Shown here: positions 43,572 through 61,527 of the stretch, one piece after another | Layout of the letters: each line of letters starts with the position of its first letter | Numbering within the stretch: position 1 is the stretch's first letter | Position numbers and translations under genes: made by a program | Notes under the pieces: generated by a model | Told to the model about the DNA's origin: nothing | Seen by the model: the letters and a program-made list of their open reading frames with translations, nothing else | Database searches by the model: none | From: Alphaproteobacteria bacterium | GTDB taxonomy: Bacteria; Pseudomonadota; Alphaproteobacteria; GCA-2731375 | DNA length: 64,000 nucleotides | Direction of reading: 5' to 3' | Assembly: GCA_965226475.1 (NCBI GenBank) | Contig: CBDDDJ010000002.1 | Location: forward strand, 862,697 to 926,696

Positions 43572-45712
<2,141 letters not shown>

Positions 45713-45716
<4 letters not shown>

Positions 45717-45994
45717 CGAAAAATCCTCCGTGGCCGCCCCGCATTATAGCGCAATCGCGGCGGCTCAGGCGTTGGGCTGGCGAAGGCCGCTTCCATCTCG
45801 CGGCGGATGCGGAGCGCCGGGTCGGCCTCGTCGAGAGCGGCGTCGGACCAGGTAAGGAGTTCTCCCTTCTTGATATCGCGAGTCAGCGGGCCGTCGCTCG
45901 CCAGGCCCAGCGGCAGGCCGCCGATCTCGAGCGATTTCGCGGCCGGCACCTGCTTGCTCCAGACGAGGTAGCCGCCCTCGCCGTCCAGAATCTC
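45713..45994 (-). pseudogene. 3' remnant of an NAD(P)-dependent oxidoreductase with a C-terminal SAF domain
   Basis: EILDGEGGYLVWSKQ...LPLGLA...LTRDIKKGELLTWSD; homology stops abruptly at ~45995. Confidence 0.75.
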
Positions 45995-46088
45995 AACAGC
46001 CGTAGTCGACCTTCTCTAATTCTGAGTCGGACCCGATTTCCTTGGACACAGAATTGGTTTAATCGAAGTGTCCAAGGAGGACCGGAAC

Positions 46089-46499
46089 ATGACCGACAAT
46101 TTTGAAAACAAAGTTGCTGTTGATGGGCCTGTGGTAAACGAGGGCGAGCTTGGCTCGTCCACGTTTTCCCCGGGCCAGGTTTCGCCGGCAGGCCCGCTGG
46201 GACTTGGCCAGCGGTGGACGGTGACGCGCAAGCGTGAGGTTGCCCTGCGGCTTTTGCGTGGCGAGCCGGTGGAACTTTTGTCGCGGCAGTTGGGCGTGGA
46301 GATTTTCCGGCTCGAGCAGTGGCGTGAGAAGGCGATCGCCGGGATCGATGCCTCGCTCAAGGAACGCAAGGGCGATCCGGTAAAGGCGGAACTGGACATC
46401 GCCATGAAGCGGATCGGGGAGTTGATCATGCAGGTGGAACTGCTGGAGGCCAAGACGGAGACGTCCGGCCCTTTGGGGCGGCGGAGGTCGCGGCGATGA
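46089..46499 (+). CDS. IS3-family OrfA (HTH)
   Basis: RWTVTRKREVALRLLRGE...LSRQLGV; overlaps orfB by ATGA. Confidence 0.8.
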   Translation: MTDNFENKVAVDGPVVNEGELGSSTFSPGQVSPAGPLGLGQRWTVTRKREVALRLLRGEPVELLSRQLGVEIFRLEQWREKAIAGIDASLKERKGDPVKAELDIAMKRIGELIMQVELLEAKTETSGPLGRRRSRR

Positions 46500-47407
46500 G
46501 TGCCGCCACCTCTCCCGGCACGGGTTTGGCCTACGGCCTCCAGCGGGTCTGTGCGGCCTGGGGTTTTGCCCGTTCCTCGTTCTACGCCATGAAATCCCGG
46601 CAGCAGGCCACCGCTGAGCGCCCACCAGCAAAGCGCCGGGGACCGAAGCCCTCGATCTCGGACGAGGCTCTGCTGGTGGCCATCGAGGCCGACCTGGAGG
46701 CATCCCCCTGGGAGGGCGAGGGACACCGCAAGGTCTGGGCTCGGCTTCGGGTCTGTCGTGGCATCCGTGTTTCCCGCAAGCGGGTGCTCCGGGTGATGCG
46801 CGAGAACAACCTGCTCTCGCCCCATCGCTGCCGCCGCCGTGGCGGAAATCCCCATGTCGGTGAGATCATCACCCATGCCCCCAACCTCATGTGGGGCACG
46901 GACGGCGTTCGGGTGTTCACGGTGGACGACGGCTGGGGCTGGATATTCACCGCCATCGAGCATTGGAACGCCGAGTGCGTCGGCTGGCATGTGTGCAAGC
47001 GAGGCGACCGCTTCGCCGCCCTTCAGCCGATCTCCATGGGGCTTGCGAGGCTGTATGCCTCGACCTCCGCCGGTGCGGCGCGGGGGCTGGCCTTGCGGAT
47101 GGATCACGGCTCCCAGTATCTGTCGGACCACTTCACCAACCAGATCAAGTTCTGGGGCATCCAGCCGTCCTACGCCTTCGTCGAACAGCCCCAGACCAAC
47201 GGCGTCGCCGAGAGGTTCAATCGCACGCTCAAGGAACAGATCATCCATGGCCGCATCTACCGCAACATCGCGGAGCTGCGGAACGCCGTCCGCGGGTTCG
47301 TCGAACTCTACAATGCCCAGTGGATCGTGGAGAAGAACGGCTACCTGAGCCCCGCTCAAGCTCGTCAGGCGTGGCACACCGCGATGTCACTCAGGCCCGC
47401 CGCATGA
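46496..47407 (+). CDS. IS3-family OrfB DDE transposase
   Basis: WGTDG, RMDHGSQY, NGVAERFNRTLKE. Confidence 0.9.
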   Translation: MSAATSPGTGLAYGLQRVCAAWGFARSSFYAMKSRQQATAERPPAKRRGPKPSISDEALLVAIEADLEASPWEGEGHRKVWARLRVCRGIRVSRKRVLRVMRENNLLSPHRCRRRGGNPHVGEIITHAPNLMWGTDGVRVFTVDDGWGWIFTAIEHWNAECVGWHVCKRGDRFAALQPISMGLARLYASTSAGAARGLALRMDHGSQYLSDHFTNQIKFWGIQPSYAFVEQPQTNGVAERFNRTLKEQIIHGRIYRNIAELRNAVRGFVELYNAQWIVEKNGYLSPAQARQAWHTAMSLRPAA

Positions 47408-47481
47408 GACAAACTTGTGTCCAAGGAACCGGGTGCGCTACATCCCGAGCTTTGCGCAACTTCGTCGTTTATTATACTCAT

Positions 47482-48714
47482 ATGGCTTATTCCTTTGCTT
47501 CCGGTCACACCAGATGTTGATCGGCCTTCTACGTTCCAGGCACGGTTTTCGGACCGTGCCGGGGGATGTGCGGGAGCTTTTGGACTTGAGGAAGTTGGTT
47601 TCGAGTGCTGTCAGGCAGACTGGAGGGCCGGTATTCGGCTCCGATTGAGGCGGATCGGAGGGCGGGCGATGGCTGGCGCCCGGCCTGCCGGGATCAGACG
47701 TGTTGTCCGACGATGTCGCGGTAGTCGGCGGGTCGCAGGCGCGTGCCGATGCCGAGCAGGGTATCGAAAGCCGTTGCGGTGTGGCGGCGGCGGTTCCAGC
47801 GGAACACGAACTCGTCGAGGTAGCGGCGCAGATGGGCGCGGCGCAGGCCATGGAAGGTTCCGAGCGCCCAGCGCTTCAGGTTCGAGAACACACGATGGAT
47901 CCACGTCAGCACGAGATGGGCGGGCGTTGCACCGACGACCTTGGGCTGGTGGTCGTGGTCGGGCAGGCCGCAATAACCGCTCCAGCCATCGGTAATCACC
48001 CGCGCGCCCGGCGCCGAGGTTCCGGCAACGAAGGCACGAAGGCTGCGCGCGGAGAAATCCCCGATCGGCGCCAGCCGGATGCGGCGTGGCTCGCCCTCGG
48101 GCGATAGCTCGACCGCGCCGGCAATGCGCATCTTGCCTTGTGGGCTGCGACCTTGCCCGCCTGTGGCCGGGTCTTTTGCGGTGCGGAACGGGAGGGTGGC
48201 CTCATCAATCTCGATCAGGTCCTCAAGCAGGCTGCGATCCGGATTGACCATGGCACGGCGCAGCTTGTGCAGCAGGAGCCAGGCACTCTTGTAACTGCCG
48301 AGCCCGAGCTGGGCCTGGAGTTGCAGGGCGGAGATACCATTCGAGTGGCTGGTCACGATGTGAACGGCCATGAACCAGGTCTTCAGGGGCAAGTGGCTGC
48401 GGTGCATGATCGTGCCTGCGGTCACCGAGGTCTCCTTCCCGCAGGCCGCACATTCCCAGCTCGCCCGGCGCCGCTTCAGTTCCCAGCCCCTGTCATGGCC
48501 GCAGGCGGGGCAGACGAAGCCGTCGGGCCAGCGCCTGGCGGCGAGATGCCGGGCACAGGAGGCTTCATCGGGAAAGCGCGCCTCGAAGGCGGCGCGGGAC
48601 ATGGGGCGGTCATATTTCCAGCGGCTGGCCATGACGGAACATTACACGAACATGCTGCCGACGCCCACCAGAAACTCAACATCTCGTCAAACCGGGCTCA
48701 AAGGGATAAGCCCT
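47482..48714 (-). mobile_element. IS1595-family element type B, copy 1 (1233 bp, no TSD)
   Basis: Ends ATGGCTTATTCCTTTG and CAAAGGGATAAGCCCT; near-identical to 59630-60862; flanks ATACTCAT and TAACATGA do not match. Confidence 0.92.
47694..48632 (-). CDS. IS1595-family transposase (ISSod11-like, DD-H)
   Basis: RWPDGFVCPAC...CAAC, IEIDE, ITDGW, HRVFSNLKRW, YLDEFVFRWNRR. Confidence 0.93.
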   Translation of the reverse strand: MASRWKYDRPMSRAAFEARFPDEASCARHLAARRWPDGFVCPACGHDRGWELKRRRASWECAACGKETSVTAGTIMHRSHLPLKTWFMAVHIVTSHSNGISALQLQAQLGLGSYKSAWLLLHKLRRAMVNPDRSLLEDLIEIDEATLPFRTAKDPATGGQGRSPQGKMRIAGAVELSPEGEPRRIRLAPIGDFSARSLRAFVAGTSAPGARVITDGWSGYCGLPDHDHQPKVVGATPAHLVLTWIHRVFSNLKRWALGTFHGLRRAHLRRYLDEFVFRWNRRRHTATAFDTLLGIGTRLRPADYRDIVGQHV

Positions 48715-48718
48715 TAAC

Positions 48719-48970
48719 ATGATTAAGCAATTAAGTGTCGCTTTGGAGAAATGGCCCGTGCGGTTGACGCATGACCAAAGGAAGGAAATTTTTGAAGCAT
48801 TGGATTGGTATAAAATTGACAGTTTGCATGCTACGAAGAATGAACTTGGAGAAGTCACGTTTGGGGAATTACCTGAAGGAAGGTGGCCAACTAATGAAAT
48901 GCGCTCAGAATTTGCGGAAGATAAATTCAGTCGACTCAAATCTATTAAGTGGTTGTGTCTAAGAGATTAG
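48719..48970 (+). pseudogene. AT-rich ORF fragment, probably the 3' end of an accessory gene truncated by the IS
   Basis: Visibly low-GC segment beginning at the IS end; 83-aa open frame of unknown function. Confidence 0.45.
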
Positions 48971-49020
48971 GTCGGGCTAGACTTCCTAGAATTATACGCA
49001 ATCGGTGAAAACATACTGCT

Positions 49021-50517
49021 ATGAAGGCGTTGTTTGACCACATAGAGGGATTGTACATCACTCAAGGCCGTCTCTCCGGACAGGCGTTCGTGGTCCTCCC
49101 TTGGCAACGGCAGTTTGTGCGTGGCGCCTTTGCGCAGGATGTTCAGTCGGCGGCTTTGAGCGTGGCCCGTGGCAATGGCAAGACGGCGTTGTTGAGCGGC
49201 ATTGCCGCCGCCACACTAGACGGCCCGCTTGCGGTTTCGAGGGGAGAAACCGTGATCGTGGCTTCCAGCTTCGAGCAAGCACGGATCGCCTTCGAGCATG
49301 TAACAGCGTTCATGGATGCCAAGCTGAGGGACAAGCGGCGGTGGCGGGTGTGGGACAGTGCGAACATGGCGCGAGTGGAGTGCCTGCTAACCGGCGCACG
49401 GGTCAGGTGCATCGGCTCCGACCCGCGCCGGGCGCACGGGCTGGCGCCGGTGCTGGTGCTGGCGGACGAGCCGGCACAGTGGCCGGAGACCACGGGCGAG
49501 CGCATGGTCGCGGCGCTGCGCACGGCGGCGGGCAAACAACCGCACTCGCGCTTTGTGGCGCTGGGCACCCGGCCCGCTGATGCCGAATACTGGTTCGCGA
49601 AGATGCTGGCGGGCGGCGCGGACTATGCCCAAAGCCACGCGGCGCGCGCCGACGATCCCCCCTTCCGAAAGCGGACCTGGGCGAAGGCGAATCCCTCCCT
49701 CGCGCATATGCCGGATCTGGAGTCGGCGATCCGCACCGAGGCGCGGCAAGCCCGCCAGGACCCGGCCTTGCTTGCCAGTTTCGAGGCGTTGCGGCTCAAT
49801 CTCGGCACCGAGGACGCGGCGGTTTCAACGCTGCTGGACGCGGGCTTGTGGCGAGCGATCGAAGGCGTTGCCGAGCTGGACGGGCCGGCGGTTTGGGGTG
49901 TCGATTTGGGAACGAGTGCGGCACAGTCCGCGGTGGCCTGCTATCACCCTCAGACGGGCGCGCTGGCGTCCCTGGCGGCCTTCCCCGCGGAGCCGACCCT
50001 TGCCGAGCGGGGCCTGCGGGATGGCGTCGGCGGGCTCTATGCCGAGTGCGCGGGGCGCGGCGAGCTGCTCACCCTGGGGCGGCATACCGTTGATGTGCGG
50101 GCGTTGATGCAAGCGGCGCTAGATCGATTCGGTCGGCCCGCTCGGATCGTTGCCGATCGCTGGCGCGAGGCCGATCTGCGCGAGGCGCTGGACGCGGCCG
50201 GGGTGCCGATGGCGGCGCTTGAATTTCGCGGGATGGGATACCGCGATGGCGCCGAAGATGTCCGCCAGTTCCGCCGGGCCTGCGCGGATCGCCGGGTCAC
50301 GCCGGCACCGTCCCTGCTCTTGCGCTCGGCGATGGCTGAGGCAAGGACGGTCTCCGATCCAGCCGGCAATCACAAACTCAGCAAGGGCTCACAAGGCGGG
50401 CGCCGGGTCCGGGCCCGCGACGATGCCGCGGCGGCGGCAATCCTGGCGGTCTCGGCTGGTGTGCGCGCGCCGGTGGCGCCGGTGCGCCGGTGGCGTTATC
50501 GAGGAATGGCAGGGTGA
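49021..50517 (+). CDS. Phage terminase large subunit
   Basis: LPWQ, Walker A VARGNGKT, Walker B VLVLADE, WAKANPSL, nuclease GVDLG, DRWR, DPAGNHK, RDDAAAA. Confidence 0.9.
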   Translation: MKALFDHIEGLYITQGRLSGQAFVVLPWQRQFVRGAFAQDVQSAALSVARGNGKTALLSGIAAATLDGPLAVSRGETVIVASSFEQARIAFEHVTAFMDAKLRDKRRWRVWDSANMARVECLLTGARVRCIGSDPRRAHGLAPVLVLADEPAQWPETTGERMVAALRTAAGKQPHSRFVALGTRPADAEYWFAKMLAGGADYAQSHAARADDPPFRKRTWAKANPSLAHMPDLESAIRTEARQARQDPALLASFEALRLNLGTEDAAVSTLLDAGLWRAIEGVAELDGPAVWGVDLGTSAAQSAVACYHPQTGALASLAAFPAEPTLAERGLRDGVGGLYAECAGRGELLTLGRHTVDVRALMQAALDRFGRPARIVADRWREADLREALDAAGVPMAALEFRGMGYRDGAEDVRQFRRACADRRVTPAPSLLLRSAMAEARTVSDPAGNHKLSKGSQGGRRVRARDDAAAAAILAVSAGVRAPVAPVRRWRYRGMAG

Positions 50518-50606
50518 GAGGGTGCCGGCGATCGGGCGCGTATCGAATGGAGCATGAAGCTCGGCCGCTTCGTGGCCGTCACGCCGACGAGCACCACTAT
50601 AGCAGG

Positions 50607-50635
50607 TTGACACGCCGGCACTAGGGCGATAAGTT
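50607..50635 (+). promoter_or_regulatory. Putative sigma70 promoter
   Basis: TTGACA-17 bp-TAAGTT upstream of the 61-aa ORF. Confidence 0.6.
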
Positions 50636-50707
50636 GAGGCGTTCATGGCACGGAACAACGCGGCAGGCACGGATGTAACCGTCCACCGTTAGAGAGAGAG
50701 AAAGACC

Positions 50708-50893
50708 ATGACTTACCACACCCTGAAGGCGAGGGCCGATAGGATCGGCTTGTCCCTGCGGAAGAGCGGCGACCGCTACTCCGTCACCCATGTCGACTCC
50801 GGGGGCGCGGTGCATCCGCATTGCCCCGCGACCGGTTCGCCTTTCGTCCTCACTTTGAACGAGGCTACGGAGATCGTTGTCGAGATGACGTAG
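50708..50893 (+). CDS. Small hypothetical protein
   Basis: Purine-rich RBS, own promoter, 61 aa. Confidence 0.55.
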   Translation: MTYHTLKARADRIGLSLRKSGDRYSVTHVDSGGAVHPHCPATGSPFVLTLNEATEIVVEMT

Positions 50894-50906
50894 TAGCTTT
50901 CCGGGG

Positions 50907-51197
50907 ATGAGCCGGCACCACGTTCGGCTGCACTGGCGCCGATGGTATGCGACCCGTCGAACTGTATTTCGGCGGGACGCATACCGGTGCCGCTCTTGTG
51001 GCAAGGCCGGGCGCATGGAGTGCGACCACGTCATCCCGCTGCATGTGGACCCTGCGCAAAACCCCTACGACCCGGACGGCTGTCAGGCCCTTTGTCGCGG
51101 CTGTCATGTCGAGAAAACCCGGCATGAAAACCGCCGCGAGCCTACGCCTGCCGAGGCCGCATGGCGCGAGCTGGTCGCGGAGATGGCCGGCGAGTGA
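50907..51197 (+). CDS. HNH endonuclease (packaging-associated)
   Basis: RDAYRCRSCG...ECDHVIPL...CQALCRGCHVEKT. Confidence 0.88.
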   Translation: MSRHHVRLHWRRWYATRRTVFRRDAYRCRSCGKAGRMECDHVIPLHVDPAQNPYDPDGCQALCRGCHVEKTRHENRREPTPAEAAWRELVAEMAGE

Positions 51198-51230
51198 CGA
51201 TATTGCGCCGGGCCGCGTAATACCGAGAAA

Positions 51231-51263
51231 TATCAGTGGCTTAGCCTCTAAAATTTGTTGACA
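51231..51263 (+). promoter_or_regulatory. IHF-consensus site and -35 box upstream of the capsid gene
   Basis: TATCAGTGGCTTA matches WATCARNNNNTTR; TTGACA at 51258-51263. Confidence 0.45.
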
Positions 51264-51318
51264 TCGCAGCCGGTTCTCTCCCTGATGGACATGATTTGTT
51301 CTTTCCGGGAGTGCCCAA

Positions 51319-52605
51319 ATGACCGATGCCCAACGCCGTCTCCGCGAGCTTCGCGACCGCCAGTCCAAAGAACGCGGCACAATGGCCGAGCTGAGCCGCG
51401 TCGACTCGCTCACGGATGAACAGCGCAGCGAACTCGACACCATCGAGTCTGGCGTCCCGGATTTGGAGCGCCAAATCCGGGCGGCGATGGTCGGGCTCGA
51501 GGAGGAGGAGCGCGCGGCCGAGACCAAGGAAACCGCTTCGCCGGACGCCGAAATGCGCGAGAGACTGGCGTTGCGCGGCAAGGCGCAGCTCACCAATTTC
51601 CTGCTGGCGGCGGCGCGCGGCCGCATCGTCGATGGGGCTGAGGCCGAGCTTTGCGCGGCGGCGGGCGTCCAGGGAATCCCCCTCGAACTGTGGGACCTGC
51701 CGCGCCCGGCCGAACAGCGCGACATCACCCCGGCGCCCGGAACGGTCGGAATCAATCTCGACCCGATCCGCCCCGCCGTGTTCGCCAACTCCATCGCGCC
51801 GCGTCTCGGGGTTCAAATGCCGCGCGTCATGTCCGGCACCTATGCGACGGGGACGATCACGACTTCGCAGACCGCGACTCCGCTTGCCAAGAGCGCGGCG
51901 GCGGTCGGAGCGGTTGGCGCGATCAGCGTTACCACGGCGACCCCGAAACGAATCTCGGCGCGTCTGGAATTGACGCTTGAGGATATCGCGGCGGTCGGAC
52001 AGGCCAACTTCGAGTCGATCCTCCGGGAGAACCTGTCACTCGCGCTGTCGGACGAGCTGGACGATCAAGTGATCAACGGGGACGGGGCGGCGCCGAACCT
52101 GGCGGGGATCTTCGAGCGGCTTGCCAATCCGAGCGCGCCGGGCGCGACCGTCGCGGCCTTCGACGATTTCGTTACCACCTTCGCCGGCGGGATCGACGGG
52201 CTTTGGGCGAACACGATCAAAGAGGTCGCCATCGTCGCCGGCGTCGACACCTATCGACTCAGCGCCCAAACCTTCCGGGACATCGCGACCGCCGACCTGG
52301 GCGACAAGGCTTTCGCCGACTATGCGATGCAGCACTTCGGCGGATTCTGGACCAACAAGCGGATGCCGGCCAAGGCGAGCCACGTTCAGCAAGCCATCCT
52401 GTACCGCAAGGGCCGCTCGATGATGGGCGGCTCCGGGGCGATGCGCACCGCTGTCTGTCCGCATTGGAACGAGATTTCGATTGACGATATCTATTCCGGC
52501 TCCGCGAAGGGCGAGCGATATTTCACAATGCATGTCCTGCTCGGCGACGTGATTTTGGTGCAACCGAACGCCTACGCGCAGGTGGCTTTCCGAGTCTCCA
52601 CGTAG
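51319..52605 (+). CDS. Phage major capsid protein (HK97 fold, with delta-domain-like coiled coil)
   Basis: N-terminal coiled coil; ATPKRISARLELTLE; LSDELDDQVINGDG...GIF; 428 aa. Confidence 0.82.
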   Translation: MTDAQRRLRELRDRQSKERGTMAELSRVDSLTDEQRSELDTIESGVPDLERQIRAAMVGLEEEERAAETKETASPDAEMRERLALRGKAQLTNFLLAAARGRIVDGAEAELCAAAGVQGIPLELWDLPRPAEQRDITPAPGTVGINLDPIRPAVFANSIAPRLGVQMPRVMSGTYATGTITTSQTATPLAKSAAAVGAVGAISVTTATPKRISARLELTLEDIAAVGQANFESILRENLSLALSDELDDQVINGDGAAPNLAGIFERLANPSAPGATVAAFDDFVTTFAGGIDGLWANTIKEVAIVAGVDTYRLSAQTFRDIATADLGDKAFADYAMQHFGGFWTNKRMPAKASHVQQAILYRKGRSMMGGSGAMRTAVCPHWNEISIDDIYSGSAKGERYFTMHVLLGDVILVQPNAYAQVAFRVST

Positions 52606-52614
52606 GGGCTAACC

Positions 52615-53568
52615 GTGGAATTTGAGCGCCGCCTGTCCGGGCTAGAGCTTCGAGCCGAGGGCCGGCGCCTGTCCGGCGTCGTCATGAAATACGGCGACAT
52701 TTCCCTCTCGCATCGCGAACGCTTCGAATCGGGCTCGCTCCGCATGGCCGAATCGGTTCACCTGGACCTGCATCATGACGTCGAGCGCGCCATCGCCTGG
52801 CATCCCGGCGGCGGGCTCACCCTGGCCAACGGCCGCGCCGAGCTGAAAATGACGGCCGTATTGCCGCCGATCCCTGCGGCTAATCGTGCCTTGGACGAGA
52901 TCCGCGCCGGCCGCGTCGACGGTCTGAGCGTCGAATTCCGCGCCGTGAAAGAGCGGCGCGACGGCAACTTGCGGGTGATCGAAGACGCCGAGCTTCGGGG
53001 TATAGGGCTCGTCCGCAATCCCAGCTACCAGCAATCGCACGTCGAGGCGCGGCGGCGGTCGGGCCGGACCATGCGGGCTCGGATCCCGGCCGATGAGACC
53101 GTGGCCTGCGAGTGCGCCGGCCAGGACACCAGGTGGGCGCGGGTGATCCAGCCGGCGATGGAGAAAATGTGGAAGGACTCGTTTGAGGGCGGCACCAAGG
53201 CGGTGGTCGGCGCCTATCTCGAAAACTACGGGACGCCGATTGCCAGCACGGCGCGCGGCACCCTTCGGGGGCGGATCCGCGGCGTCGACGGGTACGAGGT
53301 GGACATCGACCTTCCCGATTCGGATGCGGGCCGGTCGCTGCTGGCCGCTTGGGAGGACTCCGGCTTGGTGGTCCGGCCCTTCATCGCCGATCAAACATCG
53401 GTGGTTGTGGACGGCGTGCGCGAGATAACCGGCGGCCGACTCCGGGCGCTCATACTCACCAGCTCCGACGCTCGCGAGGGCTGGCCGGAGCCGGAGATTG
53501 TCGCCACGCCGGACGAGCTGGCGAGCGCCGACGCGCCCCGGAAGCGGAGGATTCGGTTGTGGCCGTAG
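52615..53568 (+). CDS. HK97-type prohead protease with a second degenerate protease-like domain
   Basis: ELRAEGRRLSG, RERFESGS, LDLHHD, DGLSVEF, IGLVRNPSY. Confidence 0.8.
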   Translation: MEFERRLSGLELRAEGRRLSGVVMKYGDISLSHRERFESGSLRMAESVHLDLHHDVERAIAWHPGGGLTLANGRAELKMTAVLPPIPAANRALDEIRAGRVDGLSVEFRAVKERRDGNLRVIEDAELRGIGLVRNPSYQQSHVEARRRSGRTMRARIPADETVACECAGQDTRWARVIQPAMEKMWKDSFEGGTKAVVGAYLENYGTPIASTARGTLRGRIRGVDGYEVDIDLPDSDAGRSLLAAWEDSGLVVRPFIADQTSVVVDGVREITGGRLRALILTSSDAREGWPEPEIVATPDELASADAPRKRRIRLWP

Positions 53569-53870
53569 ACCTGACCGCCGCCTCGCTCGGCTTCGCGCTC
53601 GGCGTCGACGTGGCGGACGCCACGCGGCTGCTGGCCGTGGCCACGCCAACGGTGGAACGATACGCGCCGGCCGCCCCGTCCGCAGTCCAGAATGAGGCGG
53701 TGATCCGCTTCGGCGGATGGCTGAACGAATCGCCTGCCAGCGGTGCCCGGATGGAGTCGGAGGGCGATATCTCGACTTCGTTCTCCCCCGCAATGACGGG
53801 CGGTCTGAGGGCGTCCGGGGCGATGGCGCTTCTCTCGCCTTGGAAGATCCGCCGGGCGGGTGCGATATGA
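53559..53870 (+). CDS. Putative head-tail connector (gp6/gp15-like)
   Basis: Small helical protein, RLLAVAT..VERYAP.AP..VQNEAVIR...ALLSPWK; GTG start overlaps the protease stop. Confidence 0.6.
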   Translation: MAVDLTAASLGFALGVDVADATRLLAVATPTVERYAPAAPSAVQNEAVIRFGGWLNESPASGARMESEGDISTSFSPAMTGGLRASGAMALLSPWKIRRAGAI

Positions 53871-54322
53871 GACGGCTTGCGCTTCGCCGGTTTCCCGATG
53901 CCATTGTGCGCAGGCGCCAGGGCGTCGGCGCTTTTGACGAATACGGAGAGTGGATTCAAGGGCAGATCGTGACCGTCGTGCTGCCCGCGAGCATCCAGCC
54001 TGTGAAGCTGGAGGACTCAGATTTTGCCGGCGGGGTGAGTCTGGTGGATCGTCTCAAGGTCTATGTGCCGGTCGGGATCGAGCGCGTCGTGACTCCAGGC
54101 GACACGTTGAGGTGGAACGGCGGCGTACTAACCTGGAACGGCGCCCCGCTCATGTGGGGCGGACCTATCGGCTATCGCGCTGGGGACGAGAACCCCTTGG
54201 CGGCGGCGTTCGAGGCCGCGGGCGCGGACGAGGTAGAGATCGGAACGACCCACTACAGCGTCGTTGAGTCCGAGCTTTGGCGCGGCGGGCATGTCCGCGC
54301 GATCCTGCTGAGGGAAACGTGA
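53867..54322 (+). CDS. Putative head-closure/stopper protein
   Basis: FDEYGEW, ASIQP, KVY, DEVEIGTTHYSV beta-rich pattern; ATGA overlap. Confidence 0.5.
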   Translation: MRRLALRRFPDAIVRRRQGVGAFDEYGEWIQGQIVTVVLPASIQPVKLEDSDFAGGVSLVDRLKVYVPVGIERVVTPGDTLRWNGGVLTWNGAPLMWGGPIGYRAGDENPLAAAFEAAGADEVEIGTTHYSVVESELWRGGHVRAILLRET

Positions 54323-55386
54323 TGCGCTGGCCGTGGTCGAAACCGGAGCGGCGCGAATCGGGCGGCGATTTTTCCGATGCCGTTGTCCGGCTGATCGAGG
54401 CGCAGGCGGCCGGCACGGCGGCGGATGCGTCGTCTACGGCTGCGGTCGAGGCGGCCGCCGGGGCGCTGTCGAGGGCCTTCGCGAGCGCCGAGGTACAAGG
54501 TGCGCCCTGGGTCCGGGATGCCGTCTCTCCGACCGTCCTGGGGCAAATCGGGCGCGACTTGGTTCGGTCGGGTGATTCGATGCACGTTGTCCGGGTCGGC
54601 GGCGATGGCGCCGTGCGGCTGATCCCCTGTTCGTCCTGGCACTGGGAAGGGAGTCACGATCCCGCGAGTTGGGCCGTGCGAGTGACCGCCTATGGACCGA
54701 CGACAAGCACGACATGGAACCTGCCGGCGTCGGCGGTTGTGTTCGTTGGGTGGGGATCGAACCCCGGCCAACCCTATGTCGGCGTGGCTCCGACATCATG
54801 GGCGCATGCCACGGCAAGGCTCGGGTCCGAGGTCGAGCGATCCATTGCCGATGAAGTCGGCGGGCCGCTCGCGCAATTGCTGGCGGTCCCGCAGGACGGC
54901 GGCGACGATGGCGACGATGATCCGCTCGCGGCGCTGAAAGCGGACATCGCGGGCGCCCGCGGCCGGGCGATGTTGGTCGAGACCACGGCCGCGGGATGGG
55001 GCGAGGGCAAGACCGCCGCGCCGCAAGCCGACTGGCGGCAACAGCGACTCGGGCCGGCCCCGCCCGAAGTGATGGCGCGGCTCCGATGCGATGCCTTCGC
55101 GCATGTCTTGGCCGCTTGCGGGGCGCCGCCGTCGATGTTCGTCGACAACGCGGACGGGACGGCGCAGCGCGAGGCCGTGCGCCGCTGGCATCTGAATACC
55201 GTCTTGCCGATGGCGCGCATGGTCGAGCATGAGCTGACGCGAAAGCTCGAAACGCCGGTGCGGCTGAAATTCGATTCCTACGCGATGGACATGGTGAGCC
55301 GGGCAACCGTGGTCGCGAAGCTCACCGGGGCCGGGGTGGCGCCGGGCGTCGCGCTGGCGGCGGTGGGATTGGCGGATGACGAATGA
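54322..55386 (+). CDS. Phage portal protein (short, 354 aa)
   Basis: TAAVEAAAGALSRAFAS, RDLVRSGD, YVGVAP, AACGAPPSMF, VLPMARMVEHELTRKL. Confidence 0.8.
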   Translation: MRWPWSKPERRESGGDFSDAVVRLIEAQAAGTAADASSTAAVEAAAGALSRAFASAEVQGAPWVRDAVSPTVLGQIGRDLVRSGDSMHVVRVGGDGAVRLIPCSSWHWEGSHDPASWAVRVTAYGPTTSTTWNLPASAVVFVGWGSNPGQPYVGVAPTSWAHATARLGSEVERSIADEVGGPLAQLLAVPQDGGDDGDDDPLAALKADIAGARGRAMLVETTAAGWGEGKTAAPQADWRQQRLGPAPPEVMARLRCDAFAHVLAACGAPPSMFVDNADGTAQREAVRRWHLNTVLPMARMVEHELTRKLETPVRLKFDSYAMDMVSRATVVAKLTGAGVAPGVALAAVGLADDE

Positions 55387-55441
55387 CCAAGCCTGCCCGG
55401 ACTGCGACCGGCCCCGCGCCGACATCCAAATCGGCGGTTTT

Positions 55442-55463
55442 TCTGTGACACGTCTGTGACACG
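55442..55463 (+). repeat. Tandem 11-bp direct repeat, probable integrase arm-type sites
   Basis: TCTGTGACACG x2, ~46 bp from the tRNA 3' end. Confidence 0.65.
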
Positions 55464-55509
55464 GTCCCCTTCGCGTGTCCCTGAAATTCCCCTAGGTCAT
55501 TGAAAAGAT

Positions 55510-55586
55510 TGGCGACCCCGGCAGGACTCGAACCTGCGACCTGTGGATTAGAAGTCCACTGCTCTATCCAGCTGAGCTACGGGGCC
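55510..55586 (-). tRNA. tRNA-Arg (TCT)
   Basis: GGCCCCGTAGCTCAGCTGGATAGAGCAGTGGACTTCTAATCCAC...GTTCGAGTCCTGCCGGGGTCGCCA. Confidence 0.96.
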
Positions 55587-56361: not shown

Positions 56362-57522
56362 ATGAACAGGATCAACCTAGCTATGTCGGCCATCGCCTTG
56401 CTGGCGTCCTTGGCCATCCCCTCGAGCGGAGCGCTGGCGCAGGCCACGGACGTGCAATGCGCCCAATGCGTCGGCACGACGGATATCGCCCTCCAGGCCA
56501 TCACCAACGGCCGGCTGAGAAACAACGCGGTGAACACGGCCAAGATCACCGACGGCGCCGTCACCGCGAGCAAGCTCGCCCCCGGCGCGGTGACCAACAG
56601 CCGGATCGCGCTCGGCGCGGTGCGGGAAGGCCGGATCGCGAACAAGGCCGTCACGACGCCCAAGATCGCGCTCGGCGCGGTGGTGGAGGGCCGCCTGGCC
56701 AACGGCGCCGTCGTGACGAACAAAATCCGGGACGGGGCGGTGACGACGGCGAAAATCGCGGCCGGCGCGGTGACCAACGGCAGGCTCGCCGCCCGCGCGG
56801 TCGGATCCGGCAAGATCCTGGACCGCGCCATCGCCACCGCCGACATCGCCGACGGCGCGGTGACCTCGGCCAAGATCGCCGACGGGACGATCGCCAACGC
56901 CGACATCGCCGCCGACGCCGTGACCTCGGGAACTATCTTCGACGGCACGATCGTAAACGCCGACATCGCCGACGCCACCATCACGGCCGCCAAGCTGGCG
57001 TTCACTTCCTCGACGGAAGTGTACGTCATGAAGGACAGCCAAGGGGACGTGTTCGGCGAGGTCATCGATTTCGGCTCTGCGAATAGCTGGCTGGTGCTTG
57101 CCGATATCGGCGGGACGAATTTCGAACTGGGCGTAATATTCGCGACGAACGGCGCGGGAACCGCCGACGACGCCTATTATTTCAATCGTGGCAGCACTAA
57201 GACGCTTCATTTTGCGCTAGCAGGCTGCGCGGGCACGGCATATTTCCAAACGACCAAGAATGTCGGAATCGAATTGTTCGGCTTCTTCACGAGGCCGATA
57301 TTGCTTGGCCCCCAGACGGGTAGTGGTACGGACCAACGCATCATGTACAAGCCAACGAACCAGACGGAGGTTACCCTGAATATCGCCTCGACGATGACAA
57401 GTAATACGACCTGCACGACGCCTGGAGGAACCGTATCGACAGCCAACCTGATCCCGATGGAAATCGTGGACAGCAATCTGCAAACGACTTTTCCGGGCCC
57501 GTTTACGATCGCGATGCAATAG
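56362..57522 (+). CDS. Secreted protein with ~18 x 10-aa GAVTxxKIAD-type repeats and a distinct C-terminal domain
   Basis: Signal peptide ending GALA-Q; repeats at ~56464-57003. Confidence 0.8.
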   Translation: MNRINLAMSAIALLASLAIPSSGALAQATDVQCAQCVGTTDIALQAITNGRLRNNAVNTAKITDGAVTASKLAPGAVTNSRIALGAVREGRIANKAVTTPKIALGAVVEGRLANGAVVTNKIRDGAVTTAKIAAGAVTNGRLAARAVGSGKILDRAIATADIADGAVTSAKIADGTIANADIAADAVTSGTIFDGTIVNADIADATITAAKLAFTSSTEVYVMKDSQGDVFGEVIDFGSANSWLVLADIGGTNFELGVIFATNGAGTADDAYYFNRGSTKTLHFALAGCAGTAYFQTTKNVGIELFGFFTRPILLGPQTGSGTDQRIMYKPTNQTEVTLNIASTMTSNTTCTTPGGTVSTANLIPMEIVDSNLQTTFPGPFTIAMQ

Positions 57523-59132: not shown

Positions 59133-59629
59133 AATGAAAAGACCGCCACGAGGGCGGCCATCGGGAAGGCCCTGTACCCGGGGCGACGCCGAAAGGGGAG
59201 CATGATCGTTTCCTCGCGGATGCCGGTCCAGGTCAGGCCGTCGGCGTTTGCAGCGCGCGTCTGACGGCGGCCAGATCCTCCGCCGTATCGACACCGCGCA
59301 CCATCTCGGGCACAAGTCCGACGCCTATCCTCATGCCGGATTCGAGGGCGCGTAGTTGTTCCAGGGATTCGGCCCTTTCCAACCGACCGCGTGGCAGCTC
59401 GCAAAACCGCGCCAGCGCCGCGCGGCGGTAGGCGTAGATCCCCATGTGGGGATGGCCCTCCGCGATCGGGGCACGCGTGAAATAAAGCGCGTTCCCCTCG
59501 GCGTCGACGGCCACCCTGGGGGAGTCCGCGCCACCCGAAGCGCCGACGGGCGCGGCAAGGGTCGCGATATCGGAGTCTCCCTTCAGGGCCTCGATGGCCC
59601 GCCACACGTAAGCGGGAGGAATCGTCGGA

Positions 59630-60862
59630 AGGGCTTATCCCTTTGAGCCCGGTTTGACGAGATGTTGAGTTTCTGGTGGGCGTCGGCAGCATGTTCGTGT
59701 AATGTTCCGTCATGGCCAGCCGCTGGAAATATGACCGCCCCATGTCCCGCGCCGCCTTCGAGGCGCGCTTTCCCGATGAAGCCTCCTGTGCCCGGCATCT
59801 CGCCGCCAGGCGCTGGCCCGACGGCTTCGTCTGCCCCGCCTGCGGCCATGACAGGGGCTGGGAACTGAAGCGGCGCCGGGCGAGCTGGGAATGTGCGGCC
59901 TGCGGGAAGGAGACCTCGGTGACCGCAGGCACGATCATGCACCGCAGCCACTTGCCCCTGAAGACCTGGTTCATGGCCGTTCACATCGTGACCAGCCACT
60001 CGAATGGTATCTCCGCCCTGCAACTCCAGGCCCAGCTCGGGCTCGGCAGTTACAAGAGTGCCTGGCTCCTGCTGCACAAGCTGCGCCGTGCCATGGTCAA
60101 TCCGGATCGCAGCCTGCTTGAGGACCTGATCGAGATCGATGAGGCCACCCTCCCGTTCCGCACCGCAAAAGACCCGGCCACAGGCGGGCAAGGTCGCAGC
60201 CCACAAGGCAAGATGCGCATTGCCGGCGCGGTCGAGCTATCGCCCGAGGGCGAGCCACGCCGCATCCGGCTGGCGCCGATCGGGGATTTCTCCGCGCGCA
60301 GCCTTCGTGCCTTCGTTGCCGGAACCTCGGCGCCGGGCGCGCGGGTGATTACCGATGGCTGGAGCGGTTATTGCGGCCTGCCCGACCACGACCACCAGCC
60401 CAAGGTCGTCGGTGCAACGCCCGCCCATCTCGTGCTGACGTGGATCCATCGTGTGTTCTCGAACCTGAAGCGCTGGGCGCTCGGAACCTTCCATGGCCTG
60501 CGCCGCGCCCATCTGCGCCGCTACCTCGACGAGTTCGTGTTCCGCTGGAACCGCCGCCGCCACACCGCAACGGCTTTCGATACCCTGCTCGGCATCGGCA
60601 CGCGCCTGCGACCCGCCGACTACCGCGACATCGTCGGACAACACGTCTGATCCCGGCAGGCCGGGCGCCAGCCATCGCCCGCCCTCCGATCCGCCTCAAT
60701 CGGAGCCGAATACCGGCCCTCCAGTCTGCCTGACAGCACTCGAAACCAACTTCCTCAAGTCCAAAAGCTCCCGCACATCCCCCGGCACGGTCCGAAAACC
60801 GTGCCTGGAACGTAGAAGGCCGATCAACATCTGGTGTGACCGGAAGCAAAGGGATAAGCCAT
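59630..60862 (+). mobile_element. IS1595-family element type B, copy 2 (1233 bp)
   Basis: Ends AGGGCTTATCCCTTTG and CAAAGGGATAAGCCAT; 8-bp TSD TCGTCGGA at 59622-59629 and 60863-60870. Confidence 0.95.
59712..60650 (+). CDS. IS1595-family transposase (type B)
   Basis: Same protein as 47694-48632. Confidence 0.93.
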   Translation: MASRWKYDRPMSRAAFEARFPDEASCARHLAARRWPDGFVCPACGHDRGWELKRRRASWECAACGKETSVTAGTIMHRSHLPLKTWFMAVHIVTSHSNGISALQLQAQLGLGSYKSAWLLLHKLRRAMVNPDRSLLEDLIEIDEATLPFRTAKDPATGGQGRSPQGKMRIAGAVELSPEGEPRRIRLAPIGDFSARSLRAFVAGTSAPGARVITDGWSGYCGLPDHDHQPKVVGATPAHLVLTWIHRVFSNLKRWALGTFHGLRRAHLRRYLDEFVFRWNRRRHTATAFDTLLGIGTRLRPADYRDIVGQHV

Positions 60863-61173
60863 TCGTCGGAATATCGCCCTGGCAATTGACGACAATGTCG
60901 TATTCGCCATTGGCATCCACGAGGTCGACCGCTTCGCGCACCCGGTCGGTGCCCGATGCATGGTCGCTCGAGGTGCCGACGCAATCGCCACCTCCGGCAC
61001 GGATGGTATCGGCGATCTCCGCATCGTCCGTCGCCACGTAGACTGGCCCGACGTCGGCCTCGACGCAGCGGCGCCATACGTGGACCACCATCGCCTCCCC
61101 GGCGATTTCGGCGAGCATCTTGTCGGGGAGCCGGGTCGAGGCCCGCCTGGCCGGGATGACGATCGCGATATTG

Positions 61174-61527
61174 TCAGCCATCTCGCGCCGCCCCCGGCTC
61201 GACTCTCTCGGCCCCGTGCATCCGCTCGCCGAGCGCGATGTAGGCCGGCATGACGACGGCAAGCTTGAAAGCATCGAAAGACGCCCGGACCCGCTCCCAT
61301 TCGCCGTCTTCGAGCAGGACCGCGTCCTCGGCCGACTCGATCTTGTCGATCAGCGCCAGCCGTTCCTTCATCTCCTTGAAATCCAGGCCATTGACGGGAT
61401 CGGAACCGAGGATGCGATCGGCCAGCCATTCGACCGGGTCCATTACCCGCTCCGCTCCGCCGGAATCCCTGACCGGCTCGCCGTCCCGCTCCCGCATCGG
61501 GATCGGGCGAAGGTCGATTTTTCGCAT
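61174..61527 (-). CDS. Hypothetical phage-like protein
   Basis: AAGGGAG-type RBS; overlaps the kdsB start by 8 nt; acidic and helical. Confidence 0.65.
   Translation of the reverse strand: MRKIDLRPIPMRERDGEPVRDSGGAERVMDPVEWLADRILGSDPVNGLDFKEMKERLALIDKIESAEDAVLLEDGEWERVRASFDAFKLAVVMPAYIALGERMHGAERVEPGAARDG

Follow-up and report, generated by a model that had tools for sequence, protein, structure and literature searches.

A probable tail-less, capsid-forming satellite at a tRNA-Arg(TCT) gene of an alphaproteobacterium, assembled in two parts at an insertion sequence

What kind of element places genes for a phage head and for DNA packaging, and none for a tail, directly beside a tRNA gene? The question is raised by a 64,000-nucleotide (nt) stretch of the genome of an Alphaproteobacteria bacterium (assembly GCA_965226475.1, contig CBDDDJ010000002.1, positions 862,697 to 926,696), here called the window, in which such a module occupies positions 49021-55586. 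An earlier examination of the letters alone (the sequence-only reading) had proposed either a distinct alphaproteobacterial head-forming satellite or a domesticated packaging compartment. With a probability of roughly three in four, the module is the right-hand 6.8 kb of an integrative, tail-less capsid-forming satellite of about 10.8 kb at the 3' end of tRNA-Arg(TCT); the remaining left arm lies on another contig of the same assembly, C5. Ten such modules, designated A to J with A in the window, are present in the genome.

Eight genes on the plus strand fill positions 49021-55386, none of them with an internal stop. The sequence-only reading had described all frames as intact and had listed terL, a small open reading frame (ORF), HNH, major capsid protein (MCP), protease, two head-completion genes and portal; this inventory is borne out by Pfam and PHROGs matches and by fold comparison. 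The large terminase TerL (49021-50517, +, 498 amino acids, aa) matches phrog_9 at E 2e-54, and its Pfam scores for TerL_ATPase (22.8 bits) and TerL_nuclease (22.7 bits) lie slightly below the cut-offs. The HNH endonuclease (50907-51197, +, 96 aa) carries CxxC...DH...CxxCH motifs in its translation and is 77% identical to its paralogue in copy E, which scores 36.2 bits on Pfam HNH; six paralogues match this family at 25-36 bits. An alternative ORF at 50947-51261 was rejected, as the frame plot of GC content at third codon positions (GC3) and the motifs favour 50907-51197. The HK97-type MCP (51319-52605, +, 428 aa) scores 25.8 bits on Phage_capsid (cut-off 24.2) and matches phrog_10 at E 1.9e-8. 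Its residues 3-68 are predicted to form a helical, delta-domain-like N-terminal region (pLDDT about 80); beyond them the structure model (mean pLDDT 46.2) was unusable and was excluded from the fold search, and a search of PDB sequences with the MCP profile gave a single weak match (8eck, E 0.005). The S78 prohead serine protease (52615-53568, +, 317 aa; Peptidase_S78 49.6 bits over residues 19-154) has a C-terminal extension of about 160 aa.

The next gene (53571-53870, +, about 100 aa), with its frame taken from the GC3 plot and its start codon uncertain between 53556 and 53571, encodes a gp6-like head-tail adaptor according to its modelled fold. The best 17 VIA-align rows for the AlphaFold model (pLDDT 81.9) are all neck, connector or portal-tail entries of phages, gene transfer agents (GTAs) or Staphylococcus aureus pathogenicity islands, headed by HK97 gp6 (3jvo; Z 6.9, rmsd 4.1, 77 aligned) and RcGTA (6tba_2A; Z 6.9, rmsd 2.3, 74 aligned). 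Their Z values of 4.4-6.9 are middling, yet the list is homogeneous; Foldseek returned nothing for this model at E<=0.001. Sharing an ATGA overlap with the adaptor gene, the gene of a gp7-like head-closure or head-completion protein (53867-54322, +, 151 aa) matches phrog_501 (Hc1, E 3e-4) and phrog_939 (E 1.5e-5), and its equivalents in copies G and H match Phage_HCP at 34.9 and 28.8 bits. The portal protein (54322-55386, +, 354 aa) scores 35.5 bits on Phage_portal, under the cut-off of 39.1; its identity to the portals of copies G to J is 38-39%, and those of G and H reach 55.4 and 53.5 bits. The portal stop lies 123 nt from the 3' end of tRNA-Arg(TCT) (55510-55586, -; ARAGORN, Rfam tRNA 71 bits), in agreement with the earlier estimate of about 120 bp, and no tail, tape-measure or lysis family of Pfam or PHROGs is matched within 49021-55586, again as first read. 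Rfam, promoter and terminator scans of the module returned two tRNAs only and no promoter-like site.

The missing part of the element is found through the DNA left of TerL, which consists in order of about 300 nt of low-GC DNA, an insertion sequence (IS) of the IS1595 family and an IS3-family element. The IS1595 copy (47482-48714, -) contains a transposase ORF at 47694-48632 with Pfam matches to DDE_Tnp_IS1595 (92.4 bits) and Zn_ribbon_IS1595. Starting at its boundary is the 3' fragment, 83 aa long, of a low-GC cargo gene (48719-48970, +), which aligns with residues 80-159 of a 159-aa protein encoded at L032:8985-9464(-) (55% identity, E 5e-28, blastp), where this ORF occupies the gap between TerL and HNH of a related element. 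Residues 1-80 of the cargo protein are encoded at C5:1232800-1233039, flush against a second IS1595 copy (C5:1233041-1234271) that is 99.8% identical to the window copy over about 1.23 kb. About 2.3 kb upstream of this cargo half, C5:1229256-1230461 encodes a 401-aa integrase (Phage_integrase 75.6 bits, Arm-DNA-bind_3). The attachment (att) core at 55510-55556 comprises 47 nt from the 3' portion of tRNA-Arg and recurs exactly at C5:1229048-1229094 (blastn 47/47), some 160 nt upstream of the integrase; a search of window positions 44000-49100 for this repeat found none, the partner copy being the one on C5. Together the two halves total 10,827 nt including both att copies. As this length matches that of att-bounded paralogues (10.6-10.7 kb), the window module once formed the right half of a complete element. 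The sequence-only reading thus had the nature of the module right and saw half of the element, the integrase arm and second att site being on C5.

A tandem TGTGACACG repeat motif is located at 55440-55463, between portal and tRNA, and recurs with 22 of 24 nt at C5:1229221-1229244, between the att copy and the integrase; it may be a candidate arm-type binding site of the integrase.

The 8-bp flanks of the two IS copies are swapped: in the window the left flank is ATACTCAT and the right flank TAACATGA, and on C5 the left flank is TAACATGA and the right flank ATACTCAT. Two other IS1595 copies are bordered by matched 8-bp duplications. Such swapped target duplications result either from reciprocal recombination between IS copies or from an assembly mis-join at the IS. 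The second case, in which the element would be intact in the cell and its division an artefact, is unlikely but to be reckoned with: two copies 99.8% identical over about 1.23 kb invite it, the swapped flanks are exactly those that a mis-join would give, and short-read (Logan) contigs end at the IS, a behaviour compatible with a real split as well. Nothing counters it directly; that the assembly has only five contigs points to long reads, for which a repeat of 1.2 kb is normally no obstacle. In run X1 a contig of 991 nt spans 48715-49437 with 11 differences, and its remaining 268 nt have no match to the IS, which hints at a related strain or a copy free of the IS insertion. As assembled, the window copy cannot excise as a unit, and its eight structural and packaging genes remain intact.

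The satellite reading is strengthened by the other modules of the genome (7.97 Mb, 5 contigs, 96% complete), which were located by tblastn with the window proteins. MCP, TerL and HNH are each found at 10 places and the portal at 12; the ten modules share the order TerL-HNH-MCP-protease-adaptor-(closure)-portal, and a lone portal on contig C3 and one portal fragment lie outside them. Seven of the ten have a P4-type tyrosine integrase (Arm-DNA-bind_3, Phage_int_M, Phage_integrase) in the same locus, and the interval between integrase and TerL holds an ORF of about 175 aa, an AlpA-type regulator, recognised in H by PF05930 Phage_AlpA (61.7 bits) and in both G and H by phrog_66 and phrog_2790, and a replication gene that varies in type. 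In D and G the latter is a Replicase (PF03090) together with PriCT_1, and in F an HTH_36/DnaD-like gene with phrog_270; none was recognised in copies B, E and H. Exact direct repeats of the 3' part of a tRNA bound B (52 nt), D (36+12 nt) and E (35+13 nt), enclosing 10.6-10.7 kb. The plan of the family accordingly reads att, P4-type tyrosine integrase, small ORF, AlpA/Xis-like regulator and replication initiator of varying type, followed by TerL, variable cargo slot, HNH, MCP, S78 protease, gp6-like adaptor, head-closure protein, portal and att.

At C3:168487-170354 an integrase 79% identical to that of copy F and an AlpA gene 91% identical to that of copy H stand with no adjacent head module; the pair is a candidate left arm of a further split element, an integrase being absent from modules C and I. 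In L018 (C5:446500-466400) modules J and I lie in tandem with integrase and AlpA in the upstream one only, an arrangement that resembles tandem satellite integration at one site. In one sub-lineage three extra small genes follow the portal (L013 4084-7555, L038 13594-15106), one of them Mu Gp37-like (phrog_490), with related pieces in L039 (3311-4445); they may encode further neck proteins suited to another kind of tail. In copy D it is likewise at the portal end that the integrase is located.

Different copies carry unrelated, mostly low-GC ORFs in the interval from TerL to HNH, which looks like a slot for accessory genes. In the window it holds a 61-aa ORF (50708-50893, +, GC3 0.84) with no family match in Pfam, PHROGs or PADLOC and no paralogue in its own genome; in B it holds an MtlR/DUF4145-like protein, and in E and in locus L021 proteins that look membrane-bound by eye. 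For nine cargo ORFs PADLOC gave no match, and Pfam gave only MtlR/DUF4145 for the cargo of copy B. Contigs from the RNA libraries of two metatranscriptome studies (X18, record 14; X19, record 24) match 50649-51107 without mismatch, spanning the 61-aa ORF and the 5' part of HNH with near-identical ends, and may represent a discrete transcript of this slot. In X18 and X19 the greater part of the module is without RNA-library cover, which does not equal silence. That the cargo slot is expressed in the resting state is weakly hinted at by these contigs, which give neither strand nor level and may stem from DNA carry-over.

Relatives in other genomes were sought with an MCP profile in a collection of one genome per species, which yielded 20 loci with MCP identities of 34-80%. 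By the labels of their metagenome-assembled genomes (MAGs) they belong to Alphaproteobacteria (Rhodospirillaceae, Micropepsaceae, Paracoccaceae and unclassified), Gammaproteobacteria, Candidatus Binatia, Dehalococcoidia and Longimicrobiales; one of the two Binatia loci lies on a single-contig chromosome of 4.2 Mb and the Dehalococcoidia locus on a chromosome of 3.1 Mb. The sequence-only proposal of a distinct alphaproteobacterial satellite therefore holds for the satellite, of cf-PICI-like type (capsid-forming phage-inducible chromosomal island), and does not hold for its confinement to that class. Homologous loci of the same order with an integrase arm, which the sequence-only reading had pointed to as informative, are indeed present: mapped with the proteins of the own genome, 13 of the 20 loci show the full order from TerL to portal, and 13 of 20 have an integrase match. 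L026, L027, L036, L037 and L039 are partial and collinear as far as present, L020 is permuted (MCP...portal-TerL-HNH), and in L031 TerL-HNH is inverted. In many of the loci a tRNA gene borders the element on one side. L035, L038, L028 and L024 are enclosed by direct repeats of 20-50 nt at 10.5-10.9 kb; with the three own copies they make up the 7 of 16 loci tested that have repeats of at least 20 nt, the remainder having only 13-19 nt or none.

Two contigs in IMG/VR also match. One of them (L040; 10,029 nt) combines the same module with a D5-type primase-helicase (D5_N/DUF5906), has no integrase and ends in a 99-nt terminal direct repeat, so that it is circular or concatemeric with a unit of about 9.9 kb. 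In 1.84 billion representative proteins the MCP has 429 matches at E<=1e-30 and 2204 at E<=1e-3. Of the MCP and TerL trees envisaged by the sequence-only reading, that of the MCP was built, with 24 rows (10 own copies and 14 others; L022 and L036, which have stops within the matched range, and six fragmentary loci were excluded). It divides into two deep clades (100/100) with own copies in both; A, B and the two Binatia elements form a group (91/100). Of 40 close relatives 3 have an MCP match, and a sample of 400 other genomes of the class yielded 5 (E<=1e-20); the distribution of the family is thus patchy.

These data bear on the view that the module is a deletion remnant of an ordinary tailed HK97-like prophage which lost its tail, lysis and lysogeny modules. 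Taken by itself the module is indistinguishable from a phage head module, and the IS elements at its flanks and the very IS-rich genome would suit such a decay. The part that was lost has, however, been located, and it is a 4-kb integrase arm with an att repeat and no tail genes. Close homologues, which would be tailed prophages if the module were a remnant, are instead att-bounded at 10.5-10.9 kb in three own copies and four related loci, a length that leaves no room for tails. A scan of 71 ORFs of six own copies for tail and lysis families gave none except a weak Mu Gp37-like match (25.6 bits, copy D), and the MCP has 0 matches at E<=1e-5 in 50,697 phage genome records. A prophage remnant is hence barely credible.

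Domestication, the second proposal of the sequence-only reading, would make the module a GTA-like head-making and DNA-packaging device of the host, working with or beside a GTA. A candidate partner is at hand: on the minus strand at C2:927354-953259 (L043, L044), about 660 nt past the window end and about 9 kb past the portal, lies an RcGTA-type cluster with genes for a small terminase (TerS), T4-type TerL, portal, MCP, Gp77-like protein, gp6-like connector and Phage_HCP, and further for tail tube, DUF2460, hub, BR0599 and a g15-like protein with Rcc01698_C. Its portal is matched in two frames and is possibly frameshifted, and the cluster is interrupted by an IS3 copy and an insert of about 8 kb of unrelated genes. 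Both loci have an HK97-type head, gp6-like adaptor and Phage_HCP in an alphaproteobacterial host, and the adaptor folds are similar, the window model aligning with the RcGTA adaptor as given above. Moreover, this cluster holds the only recognised tail-tube and host-specificity genes of the genome, and the eight module genes are intact with ratios of nonsynonymous to synonymous substitution (dN/dS) well below 1.

For portal, MCP, TerL and HNH of copy A against their paralogues dN/dS is 0.14-0.27 (portal 0.21, TerL 0.24-0.27), and these genes are, to judge from their sequences, under purifying selection; for the protease against its paralogue partner it is 0.56. Such values cannot single out the branch after the split. 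The identities are mosaic across partner copies: A and B share 91% in the portal and 73-77% in the MCP, TerL of A is 64-70% identical to those of C and D, and its protease 58-60% over full length to those of E and F. Ten divergent copies with their own integrases, att sites and variable cargo, the patchy occurrence, and the mixing of own copies in both deep clades with elements from other phyla all speak against a host device. Between the RcGTA-type connectors, MCP and TerL and the satellite proteins blastp found nothing below E 0.18, and the GTA cluster differs in having TerS, a T4-type TerL, tail tube, baseplate hub and g15-type host-specificity protein, no integrase and a single copy. The real GTA-type cluster being a separate locus, the domesticated compartment is abandoned here as highly improbable.

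A satellite needs a source of tails. The own genome was searched with seven tail families, of which PF10145, PF04984, PF04630, PF04985 and PF06791 have 0 matches, and PF13550 and PF06199 one each, both in the RcGTA-type cluster and the sole tail-tube/Phage-tail_3 matches of the genome. This result lends some weight to helper independence, in which the element would be a minimal tail-less (or portal-only) virus or a capsid-packaged plasmid; the circular relative of about 9.9 kb in a collection of viral contigs and a spread across phyla that is hard to square with one helper point the same way. It is nonetheless very unlikely. The copies examined have retained a gp6-like adaptor, and in many of them a head-closure protein is present as well; such proteins dock tails in HK97, SPP1 and, in the preprint text of He et al. 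(10.1101/2025.02.11.637232), in a cf-PICI, and among the scanned ORFs of the copies there is no gene for receptor binding, lysis or membrane fusion. The helpers of the satellite may be infecting phages; GTA tails as a source are a long shot. The broader proposal of a fourth independent lineage of capsid-forming satellites, the smallest so far, that crosses phyla on whatever tails are available and here on those of the RcGTA-type cluster, as GTA satellites, is quite unlikely.

If the satellite works as its gene content suggests, a helper phage or a stress signal would trigger excision, assisted by AlpA/Xis, and Rep-driven replication. TerL and HNH would then cut the genome of about 10.8 kb and package it into small HK97-type heads, built from the element's own MCP, with its N-terminal domain as scaffold, protease and portal. 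Adaptor and closure proteins would seal the head and offer a docking face, and the helper would supply tails and lysis. In the window copy an IS1595 element appears to have inserted in the cargo gene just upstream of TerL, so that the DNA left of it (att, integrase, regulator-like ORFs and the 5' half of the cargo gene) is now joined to the other IS1595 copy on C5; the halves would have been parted by reciprocal recombination with that second copy, or only apparently by the assembler at a repeat of about 1.2 kb.

Several points weigh against the satellite reading. While the boundaries of the elements, their integration at tRNA 3' ends, their gene content and the split are directly observed, every functional step of the life cycle is drawn by analogy with cf-PICIs. 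In the C5 arm the integrase is the sole Pfam family match; a 118-aa ORF has no Pfam match and resembles by eye the helix-turn-helix ORF of copy E (itself phrog_66 at E 0.0021 only), and no replication gene was recognised in the arm. No TerS family is matched in any scanned copy. The ORFs just upstream of TerL were considered as TerS candidates and rejected, since they fall into several unrelated small families, none of them family-wide and none with a family match; small terminases are diverse as a class, and an unrecognised TerS is thus possible. Neither a cos nor a pac site was identified, and with the seven tail families no resident tailed helper prophage was found. The phylum labels of the related loci are those of MAGs. 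The split could be a mis-join across the IS copies of about 1.2 kb, the element then being whole and merely interrupted by the IS. Finally, similarity by blastp to EcCIEDL933 of Escherichia coli O157:H7, the prototype of cf-PICIs, is low (TerL 20-22%, protease 24-30%, AlpA 39%) and for the MCP absent at E<0.05.

The surroundings of the module are chromosomal, the window containing rpoB/C-sized and ribosomal-protein-sized ORFs, methylmalonyl-CoA mutase and others. The IS3-family element at 46016-47442 has many tens of genome copies at about 92% identity and two at 99%, and the genome is unusually rich in IS elements. Among the public runs in which this DNA is best represented is one labelled 'sponge metagenome'. 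Another near-identical IS1595 copy (59620-60862), inverted relative to the first, lies within kdsB (CMP-KDO synthetase; 59233-61181, -). Because it is flanked by a perfect 8-bp duplication, TCGTCGGA, and the kdsB halves are collinear, it is a simple insertion, and an inversion between the two IS1595 copies of the window was rejected on the same grounds. Upstream of kdsB on the same strand are a kdsA-like gene and ORFs of 552, 94 and 117 aa without Pfam match. Beyond the two tRNAs, the ORF at 56362-57522 (+) matches PHROG tail-fibre families; it was left out of the element because of its signal-peptide-like N-terminus and its many scattered genome paralogues, none of which lies beside another copy of the module. 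Its family consists of multi-copy, secreted-looking repeat proteins with 60-nt periodic repeats.

Capsid-forming satellites have so far been characterised in Enterobacteria and a few Firmicutes, and this lineage would widen the host range of the lifestyle. It is compact (about 10.8 kb), has its own gene order, is essentially unrelated in sequence and is present as ten modules in one 8-Mb genome. Close relatives, with capsids 50-80% identical, in MAGs that bear the labels of several phyla would make it a clean test case for the borrowing of tails across distant hosts, and the slot between TerL and HNH is a place to seek new accessory or anti-phage genes. An IS can also part a lysogeny arm from a head operon, leaving halves that are easily mistaken for prophage remnants or domesticated compartments.

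Compared with known systems, HK97-like cos phages share with the satellite an HNH gene beside the terminase, an HK97-type MCP with N-terminal scaffold domain, an S78 protease and connectors of gp6/gp7 type, and differ in the order HNH-TerS-TerL-portal-protease-MCP, followed by tail and lysis modules. HNH-dependent packaging, in which HNH assists the cutting by terminase, is said to have been described in such phages by Kala et al. in 2014.

The Streptomyces satellites MulchRoom and MiniFlayer are described in the article by deCarvalho et al. (2023, PMC10690885) as encoding terminase, portal, MCP, adaptor and HNH and no tail; being unrelated in sequence to cf-PICIs, they indicate according to its text that capsid-encoding satellites arose more than once. 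By this description they are set apart from the present family by direct terminal repeats, virulent helpers, low GC and the possession of TerS and a scaffold protein; they have no obvious replicase, and an integrase is reported in MulchRoom only.

The closest likeness is to the cf-PICIs, whose criteria and prototype EcCIEDL933 are presented in two preprints and the SatelliteFinder paper (10.1101/2022.09.08.507074; 10.1101/2025.02.11.637232; PMC10085698). As far as their text goes, they are catalogued mainly in Gammaproteobacteria and Firmicutes (Alqurainy et al., 10.1101/2022.09.08.507074; PMC10085698), and the packaging-module proteins of the original proteobacterial family are 50-90% similar to those of EcCIEDL933. 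The word 'Alphaproteobacteria' is absent from the main text of both preprints, and 'Alphaproteobacteria' and 'Rhizobi' from the text of the SatelliteFinder paper, supplementary host tables aside. No published description of the lineage of about 10.8 kb was found; the supplementary cf-PICI and SatelliteFinder tables might list alphaproteobacterial hosts.

At the family level the elements are, as cf-PICIs are, integrative islands whose size falls within 10-18 kb, and genes for a tyrosine integrase, for an AlpA-type regulator and for replication occur among them. MCP, prohead protease and portal are encoded by the elements themselves, as are the head-tail adaptor, the head-closure protein, HNH and TerL, and there are no genes for tails or lysis. 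The sequence-only reading had called the gene order unusual for having TerL first and portal last, which stands; the position of the capsid gene before the protease gene, unlike that in phages, is already published for proteobacterial cf-PICIs, with the order capsid-protease-portal-connectors-hnh-terS-terL in the preprint of Alqurainy et al. (10.1101/2022.09.08.507074). The EcCIEDL933 region as annotated (MCP-protease-portal-closure-connector-HNH-TerS-TerL) follows that order, whereas the satellite family has TerL-cargo-HNH-MCP-protease-adaptor-closure-portal, its distinctive features being TerL-HNH at the front and connectors before the portal. The family is smaller by about a third (10.5-10.9 versus 15.4 kb), has no recognised counterpart of the TerS of EcCIEDL933, and replicates by predicted Replicase/PriCT, DnaD-like or D5 proteins in place of DUF927. 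Its hosts are Alphaproteobacteria and, by MAG label, other phyla. Given a content like that of cf-PICIs, a different order and size and a near absence of sequence similarity, the elements of about 10.8 kb appear cf-PICI-like in their working, stand outside the E. coli-type family and constitute a new lineage or variant of cf-PICI-like satellites.

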